Assembly: GCA_000002445.1 (NCBI GenBank)
Contig: AL929603.2
Location: 608,001 to 672,000 of the forward strand
Origin: Trypanosoma brucei
Lineage: Eukaryota
DNA: 64,000 bases
Direction: 5' to 3'
Shown in pieces: positions 12,471-43,238 of this stretch (positions within the stretch are counted from its first letter, which is position 1; the number at the start of each line of letters is the position of its first letter). Below the pieces are notes generated by a model, which made no database searches, was not told the origin of the DNA, and saw only the letters and a program-made list of their open reading frames with translations. The position numbers and the translations under genes were made by a program.

Positions 12471-12533
12471 AGTTGTAAGCGCAACCATTTCCCATGCTGG
12501 GGGAAGGAGAGAGAAAAAGAAAGGAGGGATTTG

Positions 12534-12539
<6 letters not shown>

Positions 12540-12574
<35 letters not shown>

Positions 12575-12582
12575 TTCCCCTC
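12540..12582. repeat. (TA)n followed by (TG)n microsatellite
   Basis: atatatatatatat gtgtgtgtgtgtgtgtgtgtg read directly just 3' of PF16. Confidence 0.9.
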
Positions 12583-14543: not shown

Positions 14544-15776
14544 ATGGAACAGTGCTGCGGGGCGGCCGCGATCACGGATGCTGTGGATTTGAGGGATGTT
14601 ATAACATCCAGCAGGAAGCGGCGACGCGTGGATGTGGGCGAGTGTGAGGAATTGTGGCAGCAAATAAACAAAATACTTCAAGAGACCTTCACTGAACCTC
14701 AAATGGTGGTGCAGAGAAATGAAAAGGAAATGGATACCATAACTGTTACGATTCTCGCACAGTTGTATCGTGTCTTACGCGATTGTTGGTGCTTCAGTGG
14801 AGATCCTTATGATCTGTTTGAACCTGTGACGAATTTGCACGACGTAACGAAAAGAGTCCTGATGACAAGCGGGGGTTATGTGCTGACGCCTGATTCGCAA
14901 AATCTCCTTCTCGGAAGTGATGCAAACATGGCGTATGTTGGAATCCTCCTTTCGAGGGTTTATCGAGTACTGGTGGGATTTGGGCACCTTCATTGCATCC
15001 CACCTGAAGATGCGGGAATAACAAATCTAGAAAATGAGGTGTGTATTGTGCTGAGAAATCGCCAAGGCCTCACTGGTGTTGAAAGTGATTTGATAAAAGA
15101 AATATGCTCTACCCTTCGGTCGCAACTGCAGGACCCCACAGGCACAGCAGTGGCATTGTTTGAAGAATGGCCGCTACTTGAAACCAGCGAATTCGCTCGA
15201 CTTGTGGCAGACTTCAACATGAAGTTTATCGAATTCCTTCCATTCCTGCCGACGGAAGGAAGTGGAGGGGCGGCCTTTTGCTTAATTCCAAGTAATAATT
15301 ATGACACGGTGTGGGGTCGCGTTGTGAGCTGTGGAAGTTGTTGGGTAGCGGGAAAGATGTGTGCGCAGTCGTTTCTTGTGAGCCCCAGTGGGCCATTAAT
15401 TGTACATTTATTGAGGTGTCAGCGGAAGGACGGAATTCCATATGATGGCGGTGCTCATGTGACGGTGTCCGGCAACGAAGATGAAGTGATTCTGAGAGAA
15501 TGGCTCCGTCAACGCCTGTGGACGCCACAACCTACCGTTATAGTTCAATGGTGGAGAGCAAATGTTTTATCTTCATGTGTTGACTTTCCATCCTCATTAA
15601 TAAGTGAAGTTGATAATGGACCTGGGAATCATAAGTTTGAGCGGTGCTGGCCGCAGTTCATTGATGGCGCAGCGGACTGCTTGCCTGCAGTTTGGGTGCG
15701 TGGGTTGCAAGTCGTTTCAAGTGTTAAGGTTGATGTTGAGTGTTGTGTGTGTCGTATGGTGTCGTGTCCGTGGTAA
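14544..15776 (+). CDS. hypothetical protein (~410 aa), no recognisable domain
   Basis: The ORF track gives 14427-15776. The first 39 codons overlap a T-rich pyrimidine tract, so the ATG at 14544 ('MEQCCGAAAIT') is the more likely start. The ORF is long and non-repetitive with coding-like composition. Confidence 0.5.
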   Translation: MEQCCGAAAITDAVDLRDVITSSRKRRRVDVGECEELWQQINKILQETFTEPQMVVQRNEKEMDTITVTILAQLYRVLRDCWCFSGDPYDLFEPVTNLHDVTKRVLMTSGGYVLTPDSQNLLLGSDANMAYVGILLSRVYRVLVGFGHLHCIPPEDAGITNLENEVCIVLRNRQGLTGVESDLIKEICSTLRSQLQDPTGTAVALFEEWPLLETSEFARLVADFNMKFIEFLPFLPTEGSGGAAFCLIPSNNYDTVWGRVVSCGSCWVAGKMCAQSFLVSPSGPLIVHLLRCQRKDGIPYDGGAHVTVSGNEDEVILREWLRQRLWTPQPTVIVQWWRANVLSSCVDFPSSLISEVDNGPGNHKFERCWPQFIDGAADCLPAVWVRGLQVVSSVKVDVECCVCRMVSCPW

Positions 15777-23268: not shown

Positions 23269-24888
23269 ATGCAAATGATGGGACGGGCCACAATGCATTT
23301 GCGCTCTGCTGCATCCTCTCTAGTTAGCAGGGCGCGACTCATCCCCAGCAGTTTCTTATGGCCTTGTTTAATACTCACGAAAGAATCGCTCCACGTGGGT
23401 GTTATTGCTTATCGCACATTTATCCATTCCCGCGTGCGGCTCGTGCTGCGGACCGCTGTTGGAGTACCCATCGCCTCCGTCTCGCTTTATCTTTCTTATG
23501 CCCTTTTCGCCTGGTATCCGGAGCCAACAGCTGCAGTGAGTACCGATTCCGTTGCTGACAGGCCGCTGTTGCGATGCACAAGTGATTTGCTTGAGTTTGG
23601 CCGCAGTTGTGCTGGTCGCTACCATCGTATCGAAAGCAACAGTACCGCAGGAATGACGGGTTGGGGAAGGAAACTCCCCGAGTCGGAAAGAAATGAAGTA
23701 GTGGGCGATGTGCTTTACATTCTGCGGTGTATAGAGGCCATTAGAGGAACCTTTGAGGAGCGGCAACTTGTAACACCTCGTGCGGATCATGGTGCCGCGT
23801 GTCCTGCGGAAGAACTGCTGCGGATTGTTTTGGCCATCTCCCTCGATCAGGAATGGTTTGATATTGTGGAGGCCGCTCGCGAGATGTTTGAGCAAGTCGT
23901 CAGGGACCGGCCGGTGCCTGTGCAGGCAAATGTGACCAGCGCTATTGCTGACCTTTGCGCACTTTCCTACGAACTGGAGCATTGCACGGACTCATCAGAG
24001 GTGACTGTAACCCAGCGGCAACGTGTGGCACGGGCTGTTGATTCCTTTCGTCCGGAAAAGTCTGTGCGGGAACTGTGCACCATCGCAGCTGAGATCGCCG
24101 TGCTTCCGCTCGTGGACCTTGACGAAACCACGCGTTGCCTCATGTTGACGCGAAATAGCCCGGGCTACCGTCCACAGCTTATCATAACATTCATTGGCAC
24201 GAATAGCTGGCGGAGTTGGTTGACAAACTTAAGATATTGGCCGAGAGCGCCTCCTGCTGGATTGTTCGGCACTCAACTTCGTGTTCACGCGGGCTTCTTG
24301 GAAATGTTGCAATCCATTCATTTCGCTGAGGCTGCGGAGGACTTTGATCAAATCATTCTCATTGGACACAGCATGGGTGGTGCTCTGGCGCAACTTGCTG
24401 GAGTGTGTCTTGCCAATGGTAAGTCGTCTCGTCGTGTCACAGTGCTGACAGTCGCGTCTCCCCGCGTATTTGCGGTTCGGCACGGCACTTTATGGCCCTT
24501 AAGGAGTTGGCTAAGTGGAACAGAACTGACAAAAAATGAGAAGGTTGTGATTGCAGGTGCTGAGGAAGGGAGGGAAATTGATGATGAAAAGAATCAACAT
24601 GTGCAATACAGCGACTGTGAGGCAGACGTGTCGCGGGCTCTCCCCGAAAACTACCGCCATATTCGAGTTTTTATGTATGCCGATGTGGTGCCGAAACTCC
24701 CCCCGGTGTTTCTGGGTTACCACCACGTCGGGACGCCGCTGCCGTTGCACACGGGTTGCCCGACACGCAAGTCATTTGTTGGTTGGGGACTGTGGTCCCA
24801 ATGTTTCCACAGTGCAGAAATGTATAAAGCCGTGCTTGAGCGGCCCGTCGTGGCGCAGCGGCAGCGGTATTACAAATCCTTATCATAA
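23269..24888 (+). CDS. class 3 (fungal-type) lipase-like alpha/beta hydrolase, 539 aa
   Basis: Nucleophile elbow 'IILIGHSMGGALAQLAGVCL' (GHSxG) preceded by 'LRVHAGFLEMLQS' is the canonical Lipase_3 arrangement. The N-terminus is hydrophobic/R-rich (possible targeting peptide). Confidence 0.7.
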   Translation: MQMMGRATMHLRSAASSLVSRARLIPSSFLWPCLILTKESLHVGVIAYRTFIHSRVRLVLRTAVGVPIASVSLYLSYALFAWYPEPTAAVSTDSVADRPLLRCTSDLLEFGRSCAGRYHRIESNSTAGMTGWGRKLPESERNEVVGDVLYILRCIEAIRGTFEERQLVTPRADHGAACPAEELLRIVLAISLDQEWFDIVEAAREMFEQVVRDRPVPVQANVTSAIADLCALSYELEHCTDSSEVTVTQRQRVARAVDSFRPEKSVRELCTIAAEIAVLPLVDLDETTRCLMLTRNSPGYRPQLIITFIGTNSWRSWLTNLRYWPRAPPAGLFGTQLRVHAGFLEMLQSIHFAEAAEDFDQIILIGHSMGGALAQLAGVCLANGKSSRRVTVLTVASPRVFAVRHGTLWPLRSWLSGTELTKNEKVVIAGAEEGREIDDEKNQHVQYSDCEADVSRALPENYRHIRVFMYADVVPKLPPVFLGYHHVGTPLPLHTGCPTRKSFVGWGLWSQCFHSAEMYKAVLERPVVAQRQRYYKSLS

Positions 24889-26815: not shown

Positions 26816-28027
26816 ATGTCGGTCAGTTCCCCGCTCGCCAGCAGCGGTGAGAGGGAGCAATATGGCCCGCAGGAACAGCGGCAATATGGATTCGTTCCCG
26901 TTCAAATGACAAATTTAGTTCCCGTACGCGTGGTCAGTGTGCACGGCGACTTTTTCGATATGGAAATACATCAGGACGCACCGCTGCATATAGTTCAGAG
27001 AGCAGCTGAGGACTGCTTTAAGGTCCGCCCTGAGTTGCAGTTACTGACGCACAACCGGAAGCCAATAAACCCCAATCAGTCTCTGAGGCGCAATGGTTGT
27101 CTGCTATTGAAAGGCGATCCGTTTGTCAAAATTGTGCTTGATGTGAAGAAGGGGTCAAGGCTAAACATTGTCTGCCAAATGGCCCACTGCGAACCCATAC
27201 CGCTCGCTTGCGAGGCTGAAGACACGATTTGGGATGTCAAAAAGAAGTTCTGCTCATCTTTAGAAAAGTCGGAGGTCACACCGCAGCGCATTCGCCTGTT
27301 GTGGCGCTACTGGGAGCTGAACGATAAGGCCACAGTTGACTATTACCACATCCCCACCAATTCAAAACTGACTGTGATGAAGAAACGGGACATCTTAGGG
27401 GGACAACAAACAGAAAGACGCAGGGCGCCCTCACAGAGACGGAGACAAGATGTCCAGAGACGTCACGAACGCTGCGACGCCGATACCGATGATGTGGCAG
27501 CGTGGCCGAAAGCACCATCAGTTGTTCCACCATACGAAAAGTATAGACAAGCATCCGGCCGTGAACCGCTGGAAGGCGAAGATAATCGCTCAAAAACGCC
27601 AAATGCGAATGGTAGCGCCCAAGTGGTGGAAGGTGGGGCGGATCGGGACAGCCATCATCCCCCAATTCGGGCGTGGCCCGCCTTGCCCCAAGAGCAATTT
27701 GGCCGGGCTGTAATTCCTCTTTATCCGATAGTCCCGCCCCTCTCCGGAGGAAGTTATTATAGAGAGCCTCGCGCACAAACGCCCGACAGGCGACCCGCCG
27801 TAGTGCCGGTGGCAGAGGCAACACAAGTTGTGGATTTTACCGAGGTTCAACGCCTGAGGATGGAGGTGGAGGAGTTAGGACGGCGTATGGAGACCTGCGT
27901 CACAGATCGGGCGGAGTTTTCGGCGATGGAGGAATCATTCCGCGCCGCTGTGACGCGAGTGTCGGAATTGGAGGCATCCGTTGGCCGGGTTCAGAACCTA
28001 CTGAAACGAGCGCTTCACTTGATGTGA
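26816..28027 (+). CDS. hypothetical protein with ubiquitin-like fold segment(s) and a C-terminal coiled coil, 403 aa
   Basis: 'EDTIWDVKKKFCSSLEKSEVTPQRIRLLWRYWELNDKATVDYYHIPTNSKLTVM' has the beta-grasp/ubiquitin-like pattern. The C-terminal 'QRLRMEVEELGRRMETCV...VSELEASVGRVQNLLKRAL' is heptad-like. This is the last + strand gene before the strand switch. Confidence 0.5.
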   Translation: MSVSSPLASSGEREQYGPQEQRQYGFVPVQMTNLVPVRVVSVHGDFFDMEIHQDAPLHIVQRAAEDCFKVRPELQLLTHNRKPINPNQSLRRNGCLLLKGDPFVKIVLDVKKGSRLNIVCQMAHCEPIPLACEAEDTIWDVKKKFCSSLEKSEVTPQRIRLLWRYWELNDKATVDYYHIPTNSKLTVMKKRDILGGQQTERRRAPSQRRRQDVQRRHERCDADTDDVAAWPKAPSVVPPYEKYRQASGREPLEGEDNRSKTPNANGSAQVVEGGADRDSHHPPIRAWPALPQEQFGRAVIPLYPIVPPLSGGSYYREPRAQTPDRRPAVVPVAEATQVVDFTEVQRLRMEVEELGRRMETCVTDRAEFSAMEESFRAAVTRVSELEASVGRVQNLLKRALHLM

Positions 28028-28504
28028 AGAGGGTATAACACGGTGTGTGGGTCTTGTGTTTTTCGTGGTGGGAGCACTGTGTTTGTAATGTGTATATTCC
28101 TGTTTCGTCACGTGTGTTTTACACGGAGATGAAGGAAGCATGACGCTGCGACTCTGCAAGTTTTGCTTAAGAGCACATATCACACACTCGAGGGTGTTGT
28201 GGGTCTGAGCGATTGAAGGGAGGGGAATAAAGTGGAGGGCAGCGGTCAGTCACGCTGCACGAGATCCCTGTTTCTCACATTCCTCTTCATCTGTGCCGTT
28301 CTTTCACTTCTGTCACCGACGGCCGCCGTTTGCCCATACCCCCCCCCCTCCCAATCCCTTTATTGTCCCTTCCTGAATATTACCAAACGCTGTGAAGCGG
28401 CGATTAGGATAGTAATACATGGTGTTGGATGATTGTACATCTGGGACTGGATCTCGAGTATCAGTTGTTCTACAGGTTTAGTGCATGTCGGACACGTAAA
28501 TGCG

Positions 28505-28508
<4 letters not shown>

Positions 28509-28540
<32 letters not shown>
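28509..28540. repeat. (CA)n microsatellite
   Basis: cacacacacacacacacacacacacacacacg read directly. Confidence 0.9.
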
Positions 28541-28541
<1 letters not shown>

Positions 28542-29376
28542 CACGGATACACCATTCCATGACGACGGCGGACACGTGACCTCCGTACAACAGGAAAGTG
28601 AATGGTCGGGAACTCGGTCGCTTAAAGTGGAACGACCAAGATGCCGGTGGGGGATGCAGTTAGTTTAAGGGAAAAAAATCTGTTACCGCGTAGGCTCTTC
28701 AGCAGTTAGCTCCGACTGCCCCACAGTTGCCACGCACGCCTGATTGCGGTGCCAGTGTGAACTGGGTTGTCTTTCCGGTGCCAGTAAAGGCAGAGCAAAC
28801 AGCAGTGACTCGCACCCGCTACTGCAAGAGCAAAAACTGGCACGTTTAGGTGACGTTGCGTTGCATCATCTCAAAACATGTTTCCACCACTTGCGGGAAG
28901 GTCCAGCAACCTCAGTTACAAAATTTTGCCGCGCGGCGAACTGGCACGCACACGTACAGCAGGGGTTTTTGCATCTCACCGGTGGAATTTCTGCCCCTCC
29001 ATGAAAGGATAGACAAAAAAAAGGAGGATCTCTCAAATGTCATGGCGCGGAGTCTTATGAGGAAGCGAAAATTAGAGGAAAACGGTTTAGCGAGCCTCTC
29101 CACGGGGACACCGTGCGTATGTTACAAAACAAGCTTTGGCGCGTTTACACACCACCCGCTGTAAGATGGCTATGGAGTGCGGACTTGGGAAAGACGGACT
29201 CACAGAATCCGTAGGAATGGACTGAAGGGAGGGGGGCGATGGAACAGCCAGAAAACAAGTCACAAGCGTGTCAACTTTTACCTAGCGACCCACACTGATT
29301 TCCCTCATCTGCCTTTGAGGTCGGAGCCCGCGAAAGTGATGGATGGGAAACACATCCTTAAGCGAGTAAGGAATAA

Positions 29377-29662
29377 AGAATGTCTCCTGCAGTTTCGGTG
29401 TGTATGGGCGTTTCGTGGCATAAGAGTCAGTTCGCGAATGCCTGTGCGGAAGCCCAACGAATACGACCCTACTACGCAGCTGCCTCAGCGCATGAACTGG
29501 TATCATGGCAACTGCCACGCGGTGGAAGAGGATTAAAGGCCTAAACAATTTGAGAGTGCTTTGTTAATATAAACAACGGGTAAAAATGTGATAACACTTG
29601 GCAGCATGCCATCAGCAGTATCATCCGCACTAATCTGCTGCTGGCCGGTGATGTGGAAGAGA
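29377..29662. repeat. left arm of a 286-bp perfect or near-perfect inverted repeat (partner 31561-31846)
   Basis: The reverse complement of 29377-29662 matches 31561-31846 base for base over every stretch I checked by hand. For example, 'cacttggcagcatgccatcagcagtatcatccgcactaatctgctgctggccggtgatgtggaagag' pairs with 'ctcttccacatcaccggccagcagcagattagtgcggatgatactgctgatggcatgctgccaagtg'. The same 88-aa translation also appears on opposite strands (ORFs 29282-29548 - and 31675-31857 +). Confidence 0.9.
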
Positions 29663-31560
29663 GGGGAAGGCAGGGGGTGTTGTCTCCAGTGAAGGAGAGG
29701 TCCATCACGTTGCTTACCCGATTTGCTTTCGGAAACGTGGCCGCATCTGTGCTTGCTTCCGTCTCGCTCCCTCAGTGGCGAGGGGTCCTTGTCTCTTCCC
29801 TAATGCTACCGCGATGTCTCGAGTTCTGTGCTCTTGCTTGTGGTGCGTTGTGGATTCGCCCCTCGATTTCGTTGTGTGATCACATTCCCGATTTTTGGGT
29901 GGAAGTTGTGTCCTTCTGTCTTTCCGAACTCCGGACGCTTCTCTTCCCTTCTTCAAATGCACTATTGCACTCATTGGGTACAGTTGCCGTGGAGTTACAT
30001 TCGGGTGCCGGACTCTTCGGTGGTTTGTTAATCCACCCTTGGACTTGGGTACAAAAGAACACAGGGCACACTGAAGAGTGTTCTCCGATTCTGTTGTTTG
30101 TTCACTTCCCTCTGGGTTTTCTGTTGTTCCGCGCGGTGGTGCTACACCCGAGTGTGCGGTCTCTCTGTGCCTTGTTTGCCAAGTCTTCGATTTGAAGGTC
30201 CTCTCGCAGATCAAGCAGGGATACATAATAGTATCCGCAGCGGTTTGCGGTGTTTCTGTGTTTGGCGGCGGTTCGGGAGGTGGGAGGGCCAAATTGGAAT
30301 CCTCCTCCATCTCCTCGCGGGAATTCGAGTCGCCGTTTGCCCTGCTCGTATGGCACTCCATGGGTTCGTTGCATGTGTATAGCGCCATTTTGCCGGTCCG
30401 AGCATCGCAGCCCACAAATTGGGCAAACTGTTGGATCGCTTGCACGTGTGGATGTTGGTCTCACACTCACGAGCTCCACTGTCTGGCTTTTTGCCACATT
30501 GCACCACCATTTCCATGTGTTGGGGATATTAGGGTTCAATTTCCTGTCCAACCCACCCGTACGTAGGTGATGCACCCGTGCGGAGTTGAGTGAGTAGGGT
30601 TTATTCCTTTCTGGACAGCGAGGTCTTGAGGTTTGTGTTCTTCCAGTGTCCAGTAAGTGTGGCCCTATGTGTTTGTGGCTTTTCCCTTGTAGTGCGCAGC
30701 AGCCTTTTCGCTGCTGCAACCACATCCGGTATCCATGCAGTTCGCATTTGTGGTTGCTCTGCTGTGTCAGCTTGCTCATTACCCGCTATTCCACAGTGAC
30801 CAAATATGAACTGAATACGAATCCGTCCTCCTTTACTTTGGAGTTGGATGAGTAGTGTCCATATTTAGCGCAGTACTGTGTCCGTAACTGTAAGCGGGCC
30901 CGTGTGCAGAGCTGCTACCATTGACCATGAGTCCGTAAATATCAATAATCGGAAGTTTTGTTTTTCTGCTTTATCGATCTCTTTGGACAGTTGTTTCAGG
31001 CCAATTATTAGGACTACACATTCAGCTCTATAGCTGCATGCAAGTCGTCCCGTTCCTTCGAGCACTTTGTGCAGGAGTTTGCCATTCTTGACGATGAGAG
31101 CTGCCGCTCCTGATTTTCCTCCAGTGTTACAGATCCGTCTGTCCACACTTCGTAGTGTGATAGAACGACAGGGTTATTGCCCTTTTCTTCTAATAACGGC
31201 GCTTTATCCATCTTTCGGATGTCTCACGTTTGAGTTCTTCCTCCGAGTCTCTCTTCACATTCGGGGGAATGGCGTAGTGAAACAGACATCTGTTCGCTGT
31301 ATCCAGAAATATGGACACCACTCTGTGGTGTATGCGGATTCTACCTGAAGTTGTGGGTATTCTTTCTTCACATTAAGTAGAAGTTGACGAACAGGACGAG
31401 TGGGGTTATACACCAGCGTTGAGCTCTCATTTAGGGCACCCCCACTGGATCCGCAGCATAATAGGTAGACTACTCCTCGGAGTGTTGCCTCTTCACGTAA
31501 TCTCTCCTTGAGTTTGCCCAGCGCAGTTCCACCGCGCCCCGCTCAACGACGGGCCAATAT
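29663..31560 (-). mobile_element. degenerate 3' fragment of an ingi/L1Tc-clade non-LTR retroposon (DIRE-like): RNase H domain plus C-terminal C2H2 zinc-finger region, frameshifted
   Basis: - strand ORF 31014-31211 contains 'VWTDGS' (RNase H N-terminal motif). ORF 30865-31146 contains 'LLIFTDSWSMVAAL' (RNase H core). ORFs 30102-30779 and 29714-30445 contain C2H2 fingers: 'VCPICGLRCSDRQNGAIHMQRTHG' and 'YPCLICERTFKSKTWQTRHRETAHSG'. The domains lie in different frames, which indicates decay. Domain order (RNase H then ZF) matches the L1Tc/ingi ORF C-terminus (established knowledge). There is no intact RT or endonuclease. Confidence 0.6.
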
Positions 31561-31846
31561 TCTCTTCCACATCACCGGCCAGCAGCAGATTAGTGCGGAT
31601 GATACTGCTGATGGCATGCTGCCAAGTGTTATCACATTTTTACCCGTTGTTTATATTAACAAAGCACTCTCAAATTGTTTAGGCCTTTAATCCTCTTCCA
31701 CCGCGTGGCAGTTGCCATGATACCAGTTCATGCGCTGAGGCAGCTGCGTAGTAGGGTCGTATTCGTTGGGCTTCCGCACAGGCATTCGCGAACTGACTCT
31801 TATGCCACGAAACGCCCATACACACCGAAACTGCAGGAGACATTCT
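31561..31846. repeat. right arm of the 286-bp inverted repeat; its distal 68 bp (31778-31846) is also the first bases of the transporter tandem-repeat unit
   Basis: See the left-arm entry. 31778 onward ('acaggcattcgcgaactgactcttatgccacgaaacgcc...') recurs at 35773, 39771 and 43774. Confidence 0.9.
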
Positions 31847-33278
31847 GTTGCTGCTAGCCCCACGGTGGATGATGGGCCATCTCACACTCCCACAACTGTG
31901 CCTTAATGTACAACACGGAAAGTACAGCAAGAAGACGCAGCGGCCACCAACTCTTTCGCAACGTTGCGTAACCACGTTGATATCCTCTCGGATCAGCAGA
32001 AAACTTTCGCCCGCTGATTGCCCGACCTACACCTCAACATTGTTATCGGCGGAAGGAAGCACCACCGAGAATCTCAAATATAATCACCGTGGTCCCACCA
32101 CCACTTTCAGCGCTACAGCTTCTAATCCCATCATCTTTCCCAATTAATATCCCCCTTACTCAAATATGCATCCCCCTGGGGCATGCCATCGTAATAGATA
32201 ATATAAACCTTACCCCTCCACATCAGAAATGGAGGCATCATCCAAGTTATATCCCATGTTACAACCCACCCTCCTCATCCTCACAGGACATATCGTTTGT
32301 TATCCAACCAGCAAGAGCGCAATATTCTCTCATGTCCCCCTTTTGTTTCTGGTCAGTCCAACAGTTGCAAAACTAACAAATTTCGACCCCGTATTCTTGT
32401 GGTCGAGGAATGGAACAAAGCATATGCAACGCTCACTGAAAGCGGCATGACGCCACACTAGAGAAACTATACCAGCATCGATAGTAGTCAAACACTGGGT
32501 GGGATAATAACAGCCAACATGTGCATCCAAATAACCCTTTTTCCTCCTATGCAAGCCTAAATCAGCCAACAGAAAACAAGAGGCAGCGCAATGATAACAA
32601 AGGAAGGTTAGGGGGCACCACCTGTACATAACGAGAGCAGCAGCAAGCAACGGTAAAGGAAGGAGGTTGTGATGCTGCCAAATAGTTGGGAGCACTCAAC
32701 AGCAGAAAATAAAACAAGAAAAGGTAAACAAAATGAAACGGTAAGAAAATGAAGAAAATAATAAGTAAGGTGCTCTGGAAGAAAATAAATATAATATGTA
32801 GAGTACAACATTATGACTAAAGAACGAAACTACGAGAAAATAAAACACCATTGACATGGAGGAAAGTTAGACATCAAAAGAAAAGCACCAGCGGCCACAC
32901 AGTGCGAGCACACGGGTAAGCTGAGTTTGCGTCTATTTGCACAATACGTGCTTTGACTTCCAAAGACGGACACAAGTGCGCGCTGATTTCATGAGTGAGG
33001 AACGAAGTGGTGTTGCAGATTTATAACAAAAGTCACAGAGGAGAAATAATAGGGTGGTAATATAAATAAAAGGGTAAGTTACGGCACCGAGAGTGACTTT
33101 TCACAATTTCTTGGAAAGTAGAAATAAAAGGAGCAATGCTCCGTACAACAATGTTGAGGTGCTGATGCAAAGGAAAACAACATATTCATGTATTTGTTAA
33201 GGGAGAAAAGTAATAAGAATTCGTTTTCAATATTATTGCACGGCCCACCTGACATTAGTGCCAACGATACGAGCCGCG

Positions 33279-35237
33279 TCAGGACCTCTTGGGCGCGATC
33301 CCGTTGCCCTCCGCATTGGGTGTCACATCGCTGTCCCCTTCACAGACAGTTTCTTTCCCCTCAGGGGAAACATCAGCCGCCACCTTCCTCACGGGTTTGC
33401 CGTCTCCATCCAACTCCTCGTCCATGCGAGCATCGGGGAGAAGAGTAAAGATGAGAGGGATCTGAATGCACGGTGCCACGAAGCCGGAAATGAGCACAAG
33501 CCACTTTACATTGGCGAAGTCACATGGCACCAGTGTTTTCACAGGCAGAGCATATTCCATTATAACTGACCCAAGGGAACTACCCACCGTGCTACCGAAA
33601 TTGCTCGATGCAGCAAGAATAGCGTACACAGTACTCTCGCTTCCACGAGGACACAACCGTGAAAGAATAATGGTTAACGGCATCCAGTTCATCATCCCGA
33701 TCACAGGAGATATGACGACATCGCAGCAGAAGTAAATCAAGTAGTCACTGACGTATGGCCGGTTCCATCGCATCACTATAATGAAGTCGAAGATGTTGGA
33801 GACGATGAGGAACACCAGTGTCAAGAAGTAAGTCATCCGATAAGTCTTTTTTGAAAGGAAGTAATTGAACAGCACGACACCCAGAGCTGAAGTGACACTT
33901 CCAACTGTTCCACCAACAGTCTGCAGGAAAAAAAGACTGAAGTGAGGTCCACCCGGATTGCAATCGGGTCCGCTCAGGAAGAACGGGGTGACAGCACCAC
34001 CAAAAGACACCGTAGACGCATTGTTCAAGTAACTGAACAGATTCACCTTCGCGACCGCCCACGACAGCGCATAGAAATTGAAAGAGCAGTGCCCCACGGA
34101 AACGACAGCCGCGGCAATGAGTAAATGCAGCCTCGATCCAAACAAGGAGGTTATGGCAACACCAACAACAAAGAATGCTATTAGCACGCTGTATATTGTC
34201 TCACGCTTGTTGCGCTCAAGGACCTCTTCGTTCATCTGGAACACACCGCAGCAGCACTCACGAGGCTCCCTGAACACAAATGGCTTCACAGCTGCCTCAC
34301 CGCCGTCAGCGTTAGGCCCCGCCACCGGCTCGCTGTTTGTCACTTGGCGCTCCACCATCCCACCATTTACGTCAATTGGATCATTGTCATCAGCCACCGG
34401 AGGGGTGTCCTTAGCCTCTTTTAACTTCTGCTCGTGGAGCACATGGGCATCGATGTACCGCTCCTCACGGTTGGGCAGTTCACCAAACCAATTGAACAGG
34501 AAGAATGGTGCCACCAGCAGCTGGACAGCGCTACCTATCATGGGAGATATCTGCGGTATGCCAGCGTCACCCAAAGGACCAACAATAACGGAAACAAAGA
34601 GACCAGCCAGGATAATGAACCACCAAACCCAACTCACCAGAGCAGGCCCTGGACCAGGCACACGGCGCATCATCCGGCTGTATAGTCCCTGCGATAGAAT
34701 GTCCGTACATGCCCTGCTGAGCCCAGAGAAGAAGAGGAACACGGAAGCAATTGCTGCACTCGATGGCTGCGCTGGGAGCAGAGCAAAGCCAAGGGAGAAT
34801 GCGGGACCGACGAGATTCGCCACAAACATGTACCACCGTTTGGTATAACCGAAGAACGGGAATATGTCGCTGATAGCAGCCAAAAGAGGCTTCACAGACC
34901 ACCCCATGCCGGCGATGTTAGTTAGCCGCTGGTAGACAAGACCCTCGACAGTGAAACGGTTCAAAAACATCGCAATAATGGATCCACCAACAAGTCCGTC
35001 AGCAAGACCCTTACACAAGAAATACGATAATCCAATGGAAAGCACGGGCTTAGGACCATAGCCCTCAGCTGCCTCCCCGAACAAGGGGATGTGCCGAAGA
35101 CACGGAACCTTGTTGAACAGGGCCCGTGCCTCGGGGTGCACAAACGTTGCCTCCTTAGATTCCTCACTGTGTAGCTCAGCGACGAGTACGGCATCACCAC
35201 CCCGCGCATCGAACGAACCATCTTCCTGTCGACCCAT
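33279..35237 (-). CDS. folate/biopterin (pteridine) transporter, BT1/FBT family, 652 aa (array copy 1, promoter-distal)
   Basis: Polytopic membrane protein with about 12 hydrophobic segments. The N-terminal 'PLFGEAAEGYGPKPVLSIGLSYFLCKGLADGLVGGSIIAMFL' matches the conserved BT1-family N-terminal motif of Leishmania/Trypanosoma pteridine and folate transporters. There is a long cytosolic loop between TM6 and TM7 (from memory). Confidence 0.85.
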   Translation of the reverse strand: MGRQEDGSFDARGGDAVLVAELHSEESKEATFVHPEARALFNKVPCLRHIPLFGEAAEGYGPKPVLSIGLSYFLCKGLADGLVGGSIIAMFLNRFTVEGLVYQRLTNIAGMGWSVKPLLAAISDIFPFFGYTKRWYMFVANLVGPAFSLGFALLPAQPSSAAIASVFLFFSGLSRACTDILSQGLYSRMMRRVPGPGPALVSWVWWFIILAGLFVSVIVGPLGDAGIPQISPMIGSAVQLLVAPFFLFNWFGELPNREERYIDAHVLHEQKLKEAKDTPPVADDNDPIDVNGGMVERQVTNSEPVAGPNADGGEAAVKPFVFREPRECCCGVFQMNEEVLERNKRETIYSVLIAFFVVGVAITSLFGSRLHLLIAAAVVSVGHCSFNFYALSWAVAKVNLFSYLNNASTVSFGGAVTPFFLSGPDCNPGGPHFSLFFLQTVGGTVGSVTSALGVVLFNYFLSKKTYRMTYFLTLVFLIVSNIFDFIIVMRWNRPYVSDYLIYFCCDVVISPVIGMMNWMPLTIILSRLCPRGSESTVYAILAASSNFGSTVGSSLGSVIMEYALPVKTLVPCDFANVKWLVLISGFVAPCIQIPLIFTLLPDARMDEELDGDGKPVRKVAADVSPEGKETVCEGDSDVTPNAEGNGIAPKRS

Positions 35238-37276
35238 CGTCAGCTTTTATGACCAATGCTTAGCTAACATTCACGAGCCACACACAAAACAATACGAAAA
35301 ACAAAGAGGTGAGAAGATATGTTGAGGAATCAAATAATAAAAGAAACGCACACACGAACCACAGGGCACCAACGTTTCAACAACACCGTGCCTCAGCATA
35401 ACTATGGCACACCAAAACCTCGCACACACAAATACACAAACACGTACTTGCGCATCGGGACATCAACCAACTCTGCGAAGTTAACATTAGAGTCGATTTC
35501 CACAGCCCCTTCCTGTCTCCAGAGGGTCCTTACAGCAACCATGATTAAACGACAAAGCGTCCCTCCACAGATATAGGGAAAATTAGGTAAATATCTGCAG
35601 TAGTCCATTTATAGCACGTTCATTCTTCACATGTCAGTTAGTGGGGGAAAGGTAACATGTACGTGACGGCCGGTCCTATTATCAAGAAGTAATAGAAAAG
35701 GCACTACATACGCGTAGCCACACAACTCATGATGTGAGGATATGCAACAACACTATGATTAGCAAAAATGATACAGGCATTCGCGAACTGACTCTTATGC
35801 CACGAAACGCCCATACACACCGAAACTGCAGGAGACATTCTGTTGCTGCTAGCCCCACGGTGGATGATGGGCCATCTCACACTCCCACAACTGTGCCTTA
35901 ATGTACAACACGGAAAGTACAGCAAGAAGACGCAGCGGCCACCAACTCTTTCGCAACGTTGCGTAACCACGTTGATATCCTCTCGGATCAGCAGAAAACT
36001 TTCGCCCGCTGATTGCCCGACCTACACCTCAACATTGTTATCGGCGGAAGGAAGCACCACCGAGAATCTCAAATATAATCACCGTGGTCCCACCACCACT
36101 TTCAGCGCTACAGCTTCTAATCCCATCATCTTTCCCAATTAATATCCCCCTTACTCAAATATGCATCCCCCTGGGGCATGCCATCGTAATAGATAATATA
36201 AACCTTACCCCTCCACATCAGAAATGGAGGCATCATCCAAGTTATATCCCATGTTACAACCCACCCTCCTCATCCTCACAGGACATATCGTTTGTTATCC
36301 AACCAGCAAGAGCGCAATATTCTCTCATGTCCCCCTTTTGTTTCTGGTCAGTCCAACAGTTGCAAAACTAACAAATTTCGACCCCGTATTCTTGTGGTCG
36401 AGGAATGGAACAAAGCATATGCAACGCTCACTGAAAGCGGCATGACGCCACACTAGAGAAACTATACCAGCATCGATAGTAGTCAAACACTGGGTGGGAT
36501 AATAACAGCCAACATGTGCATCCAAATAACCCTTTTTCCTCCTATGCAAGCCTAAATCAGCCAACAGAAAACAAGAGGCAGCGCAATGATAACAAAGGAA
36601 GGTTAGGGGGCACCACCTGTACATAACGAGAGCAGCAGCAAGCAACGGTAAAGGAAGGAGGTTGTGATGCTGCCAAATAGTTGGGAGCACTCAACAGCAG
36701 AAAATAAAACAAGAAAAGGTAAACAAAATGAAACGGTAAGAAAATGAAGAAAATAATAAGTAAGGTGCTCTGGAAGAAAATAAATATAATATGTAGAGTA
36801 CAACATTATGACTAAAGAACGAAACTACGAGAAAATAAAACACCATTGACATGGAGGAAAGTTAGACATCAAAAGAAAAGCACCAGCGGCCACACAGTGC
36901 GAGCACACGGGTAAGCTGAGTTTGCGTCTATTTGCACAATACGTGCTTTGACTTCCAAAGACGGACACAAGTGCGCGCTGATTTCATGAGTGAGGAACGA
37001 AGTGGTGTTGCAGATTTATAACAAAAGTCACGGAGGAGAAATAATAGGGTGGTAATATAAAAAAATAAAAGGGTAAGTTACGGCACCAAGAGTGACTTTT
37101 CACAATTTCTCGGGAAGGATAAATTAAAAGAACAATGCTCCGTACAACAATGTTGGAGTGCTGATGCAACAAAAACAACATATTCATGCGTTTGTTAAGA
37201 GAGAAAAGTAATAAGAATTCATTTTCAATATTATTGCACGGCCCACCTGACATTAGTGCCAACGATACGAGCCGCG

Positions 37277-39235
37277 TCAGGACCTCTTGGGCGCGATCCC
37301 GTTGCCCTCCGCATTGGGTGTCACATCGCTGTCCCCTTCACAGACAGTTTCTTTCCCCTCAGGGGAAACATCAGCCGCCACCTTCCTCACGGGTTTGCCG
37401 TCTCCATCCAACTCCTCGTCCATGCGAGCATCGGGGAGAAGAGTAAAGATGAGAGGGATCTGAATGCACGGTGCCACGAAGCCGGAAATGAGCACAAGCC
37501 ACTTTACATTGGCGAAGTCACATGGCACCAGTGTTTTCACAGGCAGAGCATATTCCATTATAACTGACCCAAGGGAACTACCCACCGTGCTACCGAAATT
37601 GCTCGATGCAGCAAGAATAGCGTACACAGTACTCTCGCTTCCACGAGGACACAACCGTGAAAGAATAATGGTTAACGGCATCCAGTTCATCATCCCGATC
37701 ACAGGAGATATGACGAGATCGCAGCAGAAGTAAATCAAGTAGTCACTGACGTATGGCCGGTTCCATCGCATCACTATAATGAAGTCGAAGATGTTGGAGA
37801 CGATGAGGAACACCAGTGTCAAGAAGTAAGTCATCCGATAAGTCTTTTTTGAAAGGAAGTAATTGAACAGCACGACACCCAGAGCTGAAGTGACACTTTC
37901 AACTGTTCCACCAACAGTCTGCAGGAAAAAAAGACTGAAGTGAGGTCCACCCGGATTGCAATCGGGTCCGCTCAGGAAGAACGGGGTGACAGCACCACCA
38001 AAAAATAACGTAGACGCATTGTTCAAGTAACTGAACAGATTCACCTTCGCGACCGCCCACGACAGCGCATAGAAATTGAAAGAGCAGTGCCCCACGGAAA
38101 CGACAGCCGCGGCAATGAGTAAATGCAGCCTCGATCCAAACAAGGAGGTTATGGCAACACCAACAACAAAGAATGCTATTAGCACGCTGTATATTGTCTC
38201 ACGCTTGTTGCGCTCAAGGACCTCTTCGTTCATCTGGAACACACCGCAGCAGCACTCACGAGGCTCCCTGAACACAAATGGCTTCACAGCTGCCTCACCG
38301 CCGTCAGCGTTAGGCCCCGCCACCGGCTCGCTGTTTGTCACTTGGCGCTCCACCATCCCACCATTTACGTCAATTGGATCATTGTCATCAGCCACCGGAG
38401 GGGTGTCCTTAGCCTCTTTTAACTTCTGCTCGTGGAGCACATGGGCATCGATGTACCGCTCCTCACGGTTGGGCAGTTCACCAAACCAATTGAACAGGAA
38501 GAATGGTGCCACCAGCAGCTGGACAGCGCTACCTATCATGGGAGATATCTGCGGTATGCCAGCGTCACCCAAAGGACCAACAATAACGGAAACAAAGAGA
38601 CCAGCCAGGATAATGAACCACCAAACCCAACTCACCAGAGCAGGCCCTGGACCAGGCACACGGCGCATCATCCGGCTGTATAGTCCCTGCGATAGAATGT
38701 CCGTACATGCCCTGCTGAGCCCAGAGAAGAAGAGGAACACGGAAGCAATTGCTGCACTCGATGGCTGCGCTGGGAGCAGAGCAAAGCCAAGGGAGAATGC
38801 GGGACCGACGAGATTCGCCACAAACATGTACCACCGTTTGGTATAACCGAAGAACGGGAATATGTCGCTGATAGCAGCCAAAAGAGGCTTCACAGACCAC
38901 CCCATGCCGGCGATGTTAGTTAGCCGCTGGTAGACAAGACCCTCAACACCGAGACGATCCAAAAACATCGCAATAATGGATCCACCAACAAGTCCGTCAG
39001 CAAGACCCTTACACAAGAAATACGATAATCCAATGGAAAGCACGGGCTTAGGACCATAGCCCTCAGCTGCCTCCCCGAACAAGGGGATGTGCCGAAGACA
39101 CGGAACCTTGTTGAACAGAGCCCGTGCCTCGGGGTGCACAAACGTTGCCTCCTTAGATTCCTCACTGTGTAGCTCAGCGACGAGTACGGCATCACCACCC
39201 CGCGCATCGAACGAACCATCTTCCTGTCGACCCAT
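37277..39235 (-). CDS. folate/biopterin (pteridine) transporter, BT1/FBT family, 652 aa (array copy 2)
   Basis: About 99% identical to copy 1. It differs at a few residues, e.g. 'FLDRLGVEGL' versus copy 1 'FLNRFTVEGL', 'NASTLFFGG' versus 'NASTVSFGG', 'GGTVESVTS' versus 'GGTVGSVTS', 'CCDLVIS' versus 'CCDVVIS'. Confidence 0.85.
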   Translation of the reverse strand: MGRQEDGSFDARGGDAVLVAELHSEESKEATFVHPEARALFNKVPCLRHIPLFGEAAEGYGPKPVLSIGLSYFLCKGLADGLVGGSIIAMFLDRLGVEGLVYQRLTNIAGMGWSVKPLLAAISDIFPFFGYTKRWYMFVANLVGPAFSLGFALLPAQPSSAAIASVFLFFSGLSRACTDILSQGLYSRMMRRVPGPGPALVSWVWWFIILAGLFVSVIVGPLGDAGIPQISPMIGSAVQLLVAPFFLFNWFGELPNREERYIDAHVLHEQKLKEAKDTPPVADDNDPIDVNGGMVERQVTNSEPVAGPNADGGEAAVKPFVFREPRECCCGVFQMNEEVLERNKRETIYSVLIAFFVVGVAITSLFGSRLHLLIAAAVVSVGHCSFNFYALSWAVAKVNLFSYLNNASTLFFGGAVTPFFLSGPDCNPGGPHFSLFFLQTVGGTVESVTSALGVVLFNYFLSKKTYRMTYFLTLVFLIVSNIFDFIIVMRWNRPYVSDYLIYFCCDLVISPVIGMMNWMPLTIILSRLCPRGSESTVYAILAASSNFGSTVGSSLGSVIMEYALPVKTLVPCDFANVKWLVLISGFVAPCIQIPLIFTLLPDARMDEELDGDGKPVRKVAADVSPEGKETVCEGDSDVTPNAEGNGIAPKRS

Positions 39236-41279
39236 CGTCAGCTTTTATGACCAATGCTTAGCTAACATTCACGAGCCACACACAAAACAATACGAAAAAC
39301 AAAGAGGTGAGAAGATATGTTGAGGAATCAAATAATAAAAGAAACGCACACACGAACCACAGGGCACCAACGTTTCAACAACACCGTGCCTCAGCATAAC
39401 TATGGCACACCAAAACCTCGCACACACAAATACACAAACACGTACTTGCGCATCGGGACATCAACCAACTCTGCGAAGTTAACATTAGAGTCGATTTCCA
39501 CAGCCCCTTCCTGTCTCCAGAGGGTCCTTACAGCAACCATGATTAAACGACAAAGCGTCCCTCCACAGATATAGGGAAAATTAGGTAAATATCTGCAGTA
39601 GTCCATTTATAGCACGTTCATTCTTCACATGTCAGTTAGTGGGGGAAAGGTAACATGTACGTGACGGCCGGTCCTATTATCAAGAAGTAATAGAAAAGGC
39701 ACTACATACGCGTAGCCACACAACTCATGATGTGAGGATATGCAACAACACTATGATTAGCAAAAATGATACAGGCATTCGCGAACTGACTCTTATGCCA
39801 CGAAACGCCCATACACACCGAAACTGCAGGAGACATTCTGTTGCTGCTAGCCCCACGGTGGATGATGGGCCATCTCACACTCCCACAACTGTGCCTTAAT
39901 GTACAACACGGAAAGTACAGCAAGAAGACGCAGCGGCCACCAACTCTTTCGCAACGTTGCGTAACCACGTTGATATCCTCTCGGATCAGCAGAAAACTTT
40001 CGCCCGCTGATTGCCCGACCTACACCTCAACATTGTTATCGGCGGAAGGAAGCACCACCGAGAATCTCAAATATAATCACCGTGGTCCCACCACCACTTT
40101 CAGCGCTACAGCTTCTAATCCCATCATCTTTCCCAATTAATATCCCCCTTACTCAAATATGCATCCCCCTGGGGCATGCCATCGTAATAGATAATATAAA
40201 CCTTACCCCTCCACATCAGAAATGGAGGCATCATCCAAGTTATATCCCATGTTACAACCCACCCTCCTCATCCTCACAGGACATATCGTTTGTTATCCAA
40301 CCAGCAAGAGCGCAATATTCTCTCATGTCCCCCTTTTGTTTCTGGTCAGTCCAACAGTTGCAAAACTAACAAATTTCGACCCCGTATTCTTGTGGTCGAG
40401 GAATGGAACAAAGCATATGCAACGCTCACTGAAAGCGGCATGACGCCACACTAGAGAAACTATACCAGCATCGATAGTAGTCAAACACTGGGTGGGATAA
40501 TAACAGCCAACATGTGCATCCAAATAACCCTTTTTCCTCCTATGCAAGCCTAAATCAGCCAACAGAAAACAAGAGGCAGCGCAATGATAACAAAGGAAGG
40601 TTAGGGGGCACCACCTGTACATAACGAGAGCAGCAGCAAGCAACGGTAAAGGAAGGAGGTTGTGATGCTGCCAAATAGTTGGGAGCACTCAACAGCAGAA
40701 AATAAAACAAGAAAAGGTAAACAAAATGAAACGGTAAGAAAATGAAGAAAATAATAAGTAAGGTGCTCTGGAAGAAAATAAATATAATATGTAGAGTACA
40801 ACATTATGACTAAAGAACGAAACTACGAGAAAATAAAACACCATTGACATGGAGGAAAGTTAGACATCAAAAGAAAAGCACCAGCGGCCACACAGTGCGA
40901 GCACACGGGTAAGCTGAGTTTGCGTCTATTTGCACAATACGTGCCTTGACTTCCAAAGACGGACACAAGTGCGCGCTGATTTCATGAGTGAGGAACGAAG
41001 TGGTGTTGCAGATTTATAACAAAAGTCACAGAGGAGAAATAATAGGGTGGTAATATAAAAAAATAAAAGGGTAAGTTACGGCACCAAGAGTGACTTTTCA
41101 CAATTTCTCGGGAAGGATAAATTAAAAGAACAATGCCCCGTACAACAATGTTGGAGTGCTGATACAACAAAGGAAAAACAACATATTCATGCGTTTGTTA
41201 ATAGAGAAAAGTAATAAGAATTCATTTTCAATATTATTGCACGGCCCACCTGACATTAGTGCCAACGATACGAGCCGCG

Positions 41280-43238
41280 TCAGGACCTCTTGGGCGCGAT
41301 CCCGTTGCCCTCCGCATTGGGTGTCACATCGCTGTCCCCTTCACAGACAGTTTCTTTCCCCTCAGGGGAAACATCAGCCGCCACCTTCCTCACGGGTTTG
41401 CCGTCTCCATCCAACTCCTCGTCCATGCGAGCATCGGGGAGAAGAGTAAAGATGAGAGGGATCTGAATGCACGGTGCCACGAAGCCGGAAATGAGCACAA
41501 GCCACTTTACATTGGCGAAGTCACATGGCACCAGTGTTTTCACAGGCAGAGCATATTCCATTATAACTGACCCAAGGGAACTACCCACCGTGCCGCCGAA
41601 ATTGCTCGATGCAGCAAGAATAGCGTACACAGTACTCTCGCTTCCACGAGGACACAACCGTGAAAGAATAATGGTTAACGGCATCCAGTGCATCATCCCG
41701 ATCACAGGAGATATGACGACATCGCAGCAGAAGTAAATCAAGTAGTCACTGACGTATGGCCGGTTCCATCGCATCACTATAATGAAGTCGAAGATGTTGG
41801 AGACGATGAGGAACACCAGTGTCAAGAAGTAAGTCATCCGATAAGTCTTTTTTGAAAGGAAGTAATTGAACAGCACGACACCCAGAGCTGAAGTGACACT
41901 TCCAACTGTTCCACCAACAGTCTGCAGGAAAAAAAGACTGAAGTGAGGTCCACCCGGATTGCAATCGGGTCCGGTCAGGAAGAACGGGGTGACAGCACCA
42001 CCAAAAGACACCGTAGACGCATTGTGCAAGTAACTGAACAGATTCACCTTCGCGACCGCCCACGACAGCGCATAGAAATTGAAAGAGCAGTGCCCCACGG
42101 AAACGACAGCCGCGGCAATGAGTAAATGCAGCCTCGATCCAAACAAGGAGGTTATGGCAACACCAACAACAAAGAATGCTATTAGCACGCTGTATATTGT
42201 CTCACGCTTGTTGCGCTCAAGGACCTCTTCGTTCATCTGGAACACACCGCAGCAGCACTCACGAGGCTCCCTGAACACAAATGGCTTCACAGCTGCCTCA
42301 CCGCCGTCAGCGTTAGGCCCCGCCACCGGCTCGCTGTTTGTCACTTGGCGCTCCACCATCCCACCATTTACGTCAATTAGATCATTGTCATCAGCCACCG
42401 GAGGGGTGTCCTTAGCCTCTTTTAACTTCTGCTCGTGGAGCACATGGGCATCGATGTACCGCTCCTCACGGTTGGGCAGTTCACCAAACCAATTGAACAG
42501 GAAGAATGGTGCCACCAGCAGCTGGACAGCGCTACCTATCATGGGAGATATCTGCGGTATGCCAGCGTCACCCAAAGGACCAACAATAACGGAAACAAAG
42601 AGACCAGCCAGGATAATGAACCACCAAACCCAACTCACCAGAGCAGGCCCTGGACCAGGCACACGGCGCATCATCCGGCTGTATAGTCCCTGCGATAGAA
42701 TGTCCGTACATGCCCTGCTGAGCCCAGAGAAGAAGAGGAACACGGAAGCAATTGCTGCACTCGATGGCTGCGCTGGGAGCAGAGCAAAGCCAAGGGAGAA
42801 TGCGGGACCGACGAGATTCGCCACAAACATGTACCACCGTTTGGTATAACCGAAGAACGGGAATATGTCGCTGATAGCAGCCAAAAGAGGCTTCACAGAC
42901 CACCCCATGCCGGCGATGTTAGTTAGCCGCTGGTAGACAAGACCCTCAACACCGAAACGGTTCAAAAACATCGCAATAATGGATCCACCAACAAGTCCGT
43001 TGGCAAGACCCTTACACAAGAAATACGATAATCCAATGGAAAGCACGGGCTTAGGACCATAGCCCTCAGCTGCCTCCCCGAACAAGGGGATGTGCCGAAG
43101 ACACGGAACCTTGTTGAACAGAGCCCGTGCCTCGGGGTGCACAAACGTTGCCTCCTTAGATTCCTCACTGTGTAGCTCAGCGACGAGTACGGCATCACCA
43201 CCCCGCGCATCGAACGAACCATCTTCCTGTCGACCCAT
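41280..43238 (-). CDS. folate/biopterin (pteridine) transporter, BT1/FBT family, 652 aa (array copy 3, promoter-proximal)
   Basis: About 99% identical to copies 1 and 2. Copy-specific residues include 'KGLANGL', 'FLNRFGVEGL', 'DNDLIDV', 'YLHNAS', 'FFLTGPD', 'MMHWMP', 'SNFGGTVG'. Confidence 0.85.
   Translation of the reverse strand: MGRQEDGSFDARGGDAVLVAELHSEESKEATFVHPEARALFNKVPCLRHIPLFGEAAEGYGPKPVLSIGLSYFLCKGLANGLVGGSIIAMFLNRFGVEGLVYQRLTNIAGMGWSVKPLLAAISDIFPFFGYTKRWYMFVANLVGPAFSLGFALLPAQPSSAAIASVFLFFSGLSRACTDILSQGLYSRMMRRVPGPGPALVSWVWWFIILAGLFVSVIVGPLGDAGIPQISPMIGSAVQLLVAPFFLFNWFGELPNREERYIDAHVLHEQKLKEAKDTPPVADDNDLIDVNGGMVERQVTNSEPVAGPNADGGEAAVKPFVFREPRECCCGVFQMNEEVLERNKRETIYSVLIAFFVVGVAITSLFGSRLHLLIAAAVVSVGHCSFNFYALSWAVAKVNLFSYLHNASTVSFGGAVTPFFLTGPDCNPGGPHFSLFFLQTVGGTVGSVTSALGVVLFNYFLSKKTYRMTYFLTLVFLIVSNIFDFIIVMRWNRPYVSDYLIYFCCDVVISPVIGMMHWMPLTIILSRLCPRGSESTVYAILAASSNFGGTVGSSLGSVIMEYALPVKTLVPCDFANVKWLVLISGFVAPCIQIPLIFTLLPDARMDEELDGDGKPVRKVAADVSPEGKETVCEGDSDVTPNAEGNGIAPKRS

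Follow-up and report, generated by a model that had tools for sequence, protein, structure and literature searches.

In Trypanosoma brucei, small interfering RNAs (siRNAs) were found at all 49 convergent transcription units (CTUs) surveyed, where they depend on the Dicer protein DCL2; most of the units listed give tens to a few thousand reads (Tschudi 2012, PMC3447711). The same study listed seven long inverted repeats, IR1-IR7, with arms of 422-10,011 bp, and all seven give siRNAs, from the arms and from the spacer as well; it also remarked on the “remarkably high sequence identity” of these arms and wondered why (PMC3447711). Degenerate ingi-clade retroposons (DIREs) are, for their part, typical of strand-switch regions, including the head-to-head DIREs at the centromere of chromosome 4 (PMC1868937). 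We analysed a stretch of 64,000 nt of chromosome 1 of T. b. brucei TREU927 (contig AL929603.2, positions 608,001 to 672,000 of the forward strand; hereafter the window, whose own coordinates are used below), where a 286-nt perfect inverted repeat encloses a DIRE in the gap between two converging polycistrons, next to a tandem array of pteridine-transporter (BT1) genes. The locus is a small further case of the inverted-repeat/convergent siRNA loci of T. brucei. The idea that it is an siRNA locus is not in itself new, since it was very probably already published as CTU1; what is new here is the inverted repeat of this site, its composition (flank plus retroposon 5' end), the concerted evolution of its arms and the inversion of its spacer from strain to strain. 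The parts of the locus are as follows:

29377-29662, unstranded: left arm of the inverted repeat (repeat search, blastn), kept in gambiense and equiperdum.
29377-29445, minus strand: outermost stretch of the left arm (69 nt), which repeats the transporter-unit edge in inverted orientation (inverted pairs, blastn).
29663-31560, sense on the minus strand in TREU927: spacer and invertible segment, an internally deleted, degenerate ingi-clade retroposon (six-frame translation, Pfam, homologues).
30005-30425, minus strand: three C2H2 zinc-finger motifs (Pfam, translation), which in ingi/L1Tc-type elements make up the C-terminal nucleic-acid-chaperone region.
30766-31169, minus strand: RNase H remnant, broken by a single internal stop and a single frameshift (Pfam PF00075, E 1.8e-9).
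31550-31609, minus strand: relic of a 2A-like peptide, SSIIRTNLLLAGDVEENIGP, straddling the arm/spacer border (translation, motif).
31561-31846, unstranded: right arm; transporter unit 1 begins with its outer 69 nt (31778-31846).

The arms are the single long inverted pair of the window: 286 nt, 100% complementary, on each side of a spacer of 1898 nt (repeat search, blastn). The original prediction, made from the letters alone, of a 286-bp perfect inverted repeat with a 1.9-kb spacer is thus borne out; in 30 shuffles of the surrounding 13 kb the longest perfect inverted repeats measured 12-22 nt. As RNA, the construct arm-GAAA-arm is predicted to fold at -601 kcal/mol, with 572 of its 576 nt paired. 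The locus resembles IR1-IR7 by its near-identical inverted arms a few kb apart; however, its arms are shorter than all those listed, and Table 3 of that study has no chromosome 1 entry (PMC3447711).

Each arm is made of a flank foreign to the element, including the 69-nt edge of the transporter array, and then of the start of the relic's coding sequence, as far as the middle of the 2A-like peptide. This block occurs twice, once at the 5' end of the relic and once, inverted, at its other end. The border between flank and element, placed by eye from a CCCT start, would lie about 90 nt inward from the outer end of the arm, a position for which the profile search gives no support. The left arm had been announced as an inverted copy of the array edge, with an overlap of 68 bp: the inverted copy is there, but its length is 69 nt, and it accounts for the outer 69 nt of the arm only, the inner part being the retroposon's own 5' coding end. 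Twin-priming of the retroposon was considered as the origin of the repeat and ruled out: at least 69 nt of the arms are flank foreign to the element and recur in the transporter array.

That the spacer is a retroposon relic, as first proposed, is confirmed by the RNase H match (E 1.8e-9), by a zf-C2H2 match in two stretches of 30005-30425 (E 3.8e-8) and by homologues annotated “Tbingi protein” in T. theileri and T. grayi, to which the relic is 45-49% identical (E 3e-44). Its reading frame is broken by stops and frameshifts on six-frame translation. There is no reverse transcriptase in the T. brucei relic and the endonuclease is almost gone, so that the element is internally deleted. Like other DIREs, the relic consists of decayed ingi-clade coding sequences and sits where the coding strand switches and synteny breaks. 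It departs from them in two respects: reverse transcriptase, most of the endonuclease, the Pr77 hallmark, poly(A) and target-site duplication were not found, and its 5' end is duplicated with its flank, and inverted, at the 3' end. No poly(A) tail is present, the 3' side running straight into the inverted arm without an A-run, and no direct repeats flank the relic as a target-site duplication would.

After the 2A-like peptide SSIIRTNLLLAGDVEENIGP comes ARWNCAG, with which the AP-endonuclease (apurinic/apyrimidinic) domain begins (WNCAG); the arm border falls after the GDVEE of the peptide. The gambiense and equiperdum allele reads SNAIRTKMPLSGDVEENIGP. In all three strains the motif is DVEENIGP, with Ile for the first Pro of the canonical D(V/I)ExNPGP, and the frame carries stops upstream and downstream; as judged from its sequence, the peptide is a decayed relic and not a working 2A. 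A protein search with the frameshift-corrected translation of this N-terminal part, peptide and endonuclease start together, yielded no candidates, so that the assignment is based on the motif and on what is established for L1Tc/ingi elements, which are known to carry a 2A sequence at the N-terminus (legend of an L1Tc figure, PMC4748587).

Elements of this kind normally open with the Pr77 promoter/ribozyme hallmark; an inward-facing retroposon promoter in each arm was considered and dropped. The Pr77 hallmark (77-79 nt, CGTG motif) gave no match in the arms up to E 100 with an nhmmer profile of 20 published Pr77 sequences, and the pairwise alignment scores of the arms with Pr77 fall inside the shuffled range. 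The best match of this profile in the window, at 28736-28761 on the plus strand (E 0.28, profile positions 16-41), is not significant. It falls in the left flank, 640 nt short of the left arm, and may represent either a chance match or the decayed 5' end of a SIDER (short interspersed degenerate retroposon) or DIRE.

A comparison with related strains, suggested together with the original prediction, was made through the neighbouring 403-aa gene, which identified the corresponding loci in T. b. gambiense DAL972 and T. b. equiperdum IVM-t1. A 286-nt repeat stands at the matching site in both, 100% complementary in gambiense DAL972 and 99% in equiperdum IVM-t1. In Lister 427 v10, fixed points in the lipase and transporter genes are 8,694 bp apart, compared with 8,718 bp in TREU927. 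An initial fear was that the arms could be an assembly artefact. It is dispelled by the occurrence of the same 286-nt repeat in two independent assemblies of other strains, and, together with the Lister 427 gene spacing, this excludes an artefact as far as the repeat is concerned.

The three-way alignment of the gap breaks in the spacer only, and for gambiense only. The TREU927 and gambiense spacers are 41.6% identical as read but 97.9% identical when one is taken as reverse complement, whereas the TREU927 and equiperdum spacers are 98.4% identical as read. Between TREU927 and gambiense the junction sequences swap exactly at the inner borders of the arms while the flanks are collinear, which is the result expected from a reciprocal recombination within the arms. 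The spacer is therefore inverted in gambiense relative to TREU927 and equiperdum. One consequence is visible in the annotations: the 224-aa gene that the gambiense annotation places in the relic (DAL972 locus 14010-14684, plus strand) corresponds to the 225-aa open reading frame (ORF) 30102-30779, which is on the opposite strand in TREU927, so that because of the inversion an annotated “gene” of the relic changes strand between two reference genomes. The gambiense genome paper reported only two large inversions, both on chromosome 10.

The arms themselves carry the trace of this recombination. Between TREU927 and gambiense they differ by 14 substitutions, and all 14 are found in both gambiense arms; the two arms are identical within TREU927 and within gambiense, and differ at 3 sites in equiperdum. 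This shows that the arms evolve in concert: recombination between them keeps the copies identical and flips the 1.9-kb body. The question left open by Tschudi 2012 about identical long inverted repeats, for which the cause of arm identity was only speculated, receives here a concrete answer, since arm-arm recombination is demonstrated both by the concerted substitutions and by the flipped spacer. Moreover, orientation is decoupled from the relatedness of the haplotypes: the gambiense and equiperdum spacers differ by 0.63% and lie in opposite orientations, while those of TREU927 and equiperdum differ by 1.64% and lie in the same one. As orientation does not track ancestry, at least one flip is recent. 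The original prediction saw in the left arm the footprint of an old inversion or duplication that created or bounded the array. Such an event may have occurred; what the strains document is a spacer flip that is recent or recurs. The locus thus also provides a simple structural polymorphism, scorable by polymerase chain reaction, inside the chromosome core.

Of the 14 arm substitutions separating TREU927 from gambiense and equiperdum, 12 are gathered within 63 nt at the inner, 2A-coding end (29584-29646 and 31577-31639). Divergence in these 63 nt is about 19% versus about 2% in the adjoining spacer, and the encoded peptide changes from SSIIRTNLLLAG to SNAIRTKMPLSG. The pattern suggests a candidate tract of ectopic conversion from another ingi-family copy.

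The repeat is difficult for assemblers, as shown by the short-read contig of T. equiperdum OVI, which stops 32 nt into the left arm, and the contigs of gambiense DAL972 were ordered against TREU927; one could then suppose that the inverted repeat, or its inversion, was created by assembly. We consider this most improbable. Three independent assemblies place the arms at the identical position with strain-specific substitutions, the gene spacing of Lister 427 is equivalent, and orienting contigs on the reference would have yielded the TREU927 orientation and not the opposite one. Besides, Sanger reads are longer than 286 nt and able to span an arm.

Segments that exist in both orientations between identical inverted repeats are familiar from the plastid single-copy flip-flop, the yeast 2-micron plasmid and the human Xq28 emerin/filamin region. 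The present case is like them, with arms homogenised by the same recombination that inverts the segment. It differs by its short 286-bp arms, by the dead retroposon that it inverts, by the absence of an encoded site-specific recombinase, and by differences seen between strains only, no isomers being seen within a cell. Pfam detects no recombinase domain among the five spacer ORFs and the frameshift-corrected translations, and the arms are 286 nt instead of short sites, which sets the locus apart from the Hin/Gin and FLP switches and points to general homologous recombination.

It might nevertheless be asked if the flip is a functional switch, in which the orientation of the relic would alter termination, chromatin or the 3'-end formation of the transporter mRNA and so regulate these differently between strains. 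The last transporter gene ends only 1.4 kb upstream of the relic, and orientation differs between closely related haplotypes, so that flipping is recent. We regard such a role as very unlikely: the segment has no recombinase, no promoter, no intact ORF and no detected Pr77 hallmark; either orientation leaves the identical arm sequence beside both flanks, only the internal relic changing strand; and homologous recombination between 286-bp repeats needs no purpose.

The repeat stands between the end of a plus-strand gene at 28027 and the start of a minus-strand BT1 gene at 33279. The genes and array that matter here are:

2030-4033, plus strand: PUF9 (Tb927.1.2600; ORF).
23269-24888, plus strand: lipase-like gene (Tb927.1.2740; ORF).
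26816-28027, plus strand: 403-aa ubiquitin-like domain protein, last gene of the plus-strand polycistron (exact match to CAJ16445.1).
31778-43912, minus strand: tandem array of three units of about 4 kb with pteridine-transporter (BT1) genes, plus a partial fourth (repeat search, blastn).
33279-35237, minus strand: BT1 copy 1, 652 aa, last gene of the minus-strand polycistron (Pfam, exact protein match).

The original prediction had put the locus where plus- and minus-strand polycistrons converge, and the ORFs agree: those of the plus strand end at 28027, BT1 begins at 33279 on the minus strand, and the next plus-strand unit begins at about 46.6 kb, beyond the minus-strand BT1 genes (33279-43238). 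The gene-free gap in between, 28028-33278, measures 5.25 kb (ORFs, protein matches) and is a convergent strand-switch region (cSSR) between the 3' ends of two RNA polymerase II (Pol II) polycistrons. The centre of the inverted repeat, at 30611, is 42 nt off the midpoint of this gap. No transfer RNA gene accompanies the strand switch or occurs anywhere in the 64-kb window, in which no Rfam family reaches its gathering score either; with E up to 10, the region 29200-32000 gives one chance-level match only and no HDV-like (hepatitis delta virus) ribozyme. The Pfam ubiquitin match of the 403-aa protein is below the cut-off. Four of the proteins predicted in the window are identical to chromosome 1 proteins of TREU927 (CAJ164xx). 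Within the gap, a (CA)n microsatellite at 28508-28527 varies between strains: 20 nt in TREU927, 7 nt in equiperdum, absent from gambiense.

Tschudi 2012 described two convergent units on chromosome 1, CTU1 and CTU2 (721000-736000) (PMC3447711). CTU2 is the centromeric region, the centromere genes being Tb927.1.3670-3750 (PMC1868937). CTU1, at 636000-642000, yielded 28,345 AGO1-bound reads, 14,746 from the top strand and 13,599 from the bottom (Tschudi 2012, PMC3447711 suppl. 3); these reads persist at 94% of wild type in dcl1-/- and fall to 3% in dcl2-/-, and their number is the third highest of the convergent units listed (PMC3447711). Reynolds 2016 gave for chromosome 1 a cSSR at 636,387-642,042 (strain 427 coordinates) with 69 reads per million of small RNA, and illustrated dual-strand transcription with “cSSR 1.4, 635-637 kb” (PMC4721609).

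Several agreements indicate that our gap is very probably this 636-642 kb interval, i.e. CTU1. Its 5.25 kb compare with the 5.66 kb of that cSSR (strain 427 coordinates), the only other mid-chromosome cSSR measuring 3.0 kb; the gene numbers around it, 27xx-2820, precede those of the centromere genes Tb927.1.3670-3750; the gambiense coordinate of 408 kb, to which about 229 kb are added as an estimate for the left subtelomere of TREU927 (absent from the gambiense record), leads to 636-642 kb; and the window start of 608,001 would put the gap at 636,028-641,278. The locus is thus like the siRNA-producing convergent units (CTU1-CTU50; cSSRs), being a gap between converging Pol II polycistrons, and very probably CTU1 itself. 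The candidate siRNA locus of the original prediction would then match published data, namely the both-strand, DCL2-dependent, AGO1-bound small RNAs of CTU1, through this very probable equation of coordinates with 28-34 kb of the window. Tschudi 2012 and Reynolds 2016 treat CTU1 as a plain convergent unit, unlike the locus seen here with its repeat, DIRE and inversion; the accessible text and tables of these papers contain no mention of the 286-nt repeat, the enclosed DIRE or the inversion between strains.

How these elements could work together may be pictured as follows. Pol II reading on beyond the terminal gene of either polycistron would include both arms in its transcript, which could fold into a 286-bp perfect duplex. 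Over the relic, RNAs transcribed from opposite sides would overlap as well. Both kinds of double-stranded RNA would be substrates of the nuclear Dicer DCL2, giving siRNAs of 23-26 nt to be loaded on AGO1. We thus consider as the probable reading of the locus an ingi relic in a convergent gap, flipped by its recombining arms, whose read-through double-stranded RNA feeds DCL2 and AGO1; the siRNA part of it we infer from the anatomy and from the small-RNA counts published for what is very probably the same locus. The high rank of this site, among the top three convergent units for siRNA output, may then be due to the repeat and its relic. This offers a testable lead on the second question raised by Tschudi 2012, the roughly thousand-fold range of siRNA output between convergent units, as a top-three unit holds a perfect, hairpin-forming repeat around a relic.

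Some points weigh against this reading. Because siRNAs are produced at 49 of 49 convergent units, the repeat is not needed for their production, and its 286-nt arms are shorter than the smallest published inverted repeat (422 bp). The assignment of the window to 636-642 kb was deduced and not read from a record, so that the link to siRNAs comes from counts published for a deduced interval, counts which do not tell apart the arms, the relic and the rest of the 5-kb gap. Finally, the gambiense orientation comes from a single Sanger assembly ordered against TREU927, for which a spurious flip is unlikely, not impossible.

The strongest competitor, which we hold for a good deal less probable but by no means negligible, is that the siRNAs derive from overlapping read-through of the polycistrons alone, the inverted repeat being a neutral by-product of recombination around the relic. 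It fits with the 49 of 49 convergent units giving DCL2-dependent siRNAs, most of them presumably without such a repeat, and with the equal top and bottom reads of CTU1, as overlap alone predicts; the hairpin, for its part, presumes a transcription of the arms. On the other hand, CTU1 has about 28,000 reads where most units have tens to a few thousand, which indicates that something sets it apart; siRNAs come from each of the seven long inverted repeats known; and a perfect duplex of 286 bp, if transcribed, is an obvious Dicer substrate.

A bolder extension, doubtful at present and drawn by analogy, is that a relic flipping recurrently at a termination zone could form an siRNA trap that renews itself and is directed against ingi/DIRE elements, like a small cluster of PIWI-interacting RNAs (piRNAs). 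If so, the strand change of the relic would provide sense and antisense ingi-family RNA from a single polycistron, over time or in heterozygotes, and arm-arm recombination would explain the perfect identity of all long inverted repeats of T. brucei.

The history of the site can be followed outside T. brucei, where orthologues of the 403-aa gene keep the left-hand synteny in T. vivax and T. theileri. In T. vivax (NLFJ01000187.1, about 11900-13600, plus strand) an ingi-like degenerate element lies about 1 kb downstream of this orthologue; it retains remnants of reverse transcriptase (“FADD” box) and RNase H (tblastn 1e-25), is syntenic with the T. brucei relic and has the gambiense-like orientation. 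There is no inverted repeat in the 3.2 kb available after the orthologous gene, where the contig ends. In T. theileri (NBCO01000014.1, 11499-19185) the plus strand goes on after the orthologue with a DUF423 gene and three GP63 (Peptidase_M8) genes, and this interval contains no strand switch, retroposon or BT1 gene. The right-hand genes of T. brucei were found at neither the T. theileri nor the T. vivax locus, and T. congolense has no orthologous locus on record. In view of the T. vivax relic and of the absent right-hand synteny, the site is an old retroposon-bearing synteny break.

The transporter array, whose edge is copied in the left arm, comprises units at 31778-35772, 35773-39770 and 39771-43773, and a partial fourth of 139 bp at 43774-43912. 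Its three BT1 genes, of 652 aa each, span 33279-43238 on the minus strand (Pfam BT1 E 7e-116; exact protein matches), and the gene identifiers are known as a set of three, Tb927.1.2820/2850/2880 (PMC5114424). Copies of the 69-nt edge start at 31778, 35773, 39771 and 43774, the left arm holding a fifth, inverted copy. The 139-bp partial unit forms the upstream end of the array and is 99.3% identical, so that the same 139-bp sequence bounds the array on both sides; an array built by unequal crossing-over between direct repeats on its flanks would be expected to look like this.

At the other end of the window, the 4.5 kb downstream of PUF9 (4034-8595) are also gene-free; their G+C content is 29-32% versus 42-55% elsewhere, and they are rich in low-complexity repeats, T-rich, (TTG)n and (TA)n. 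A perfect (TG)39 microsatellite occupies 1056-1133.

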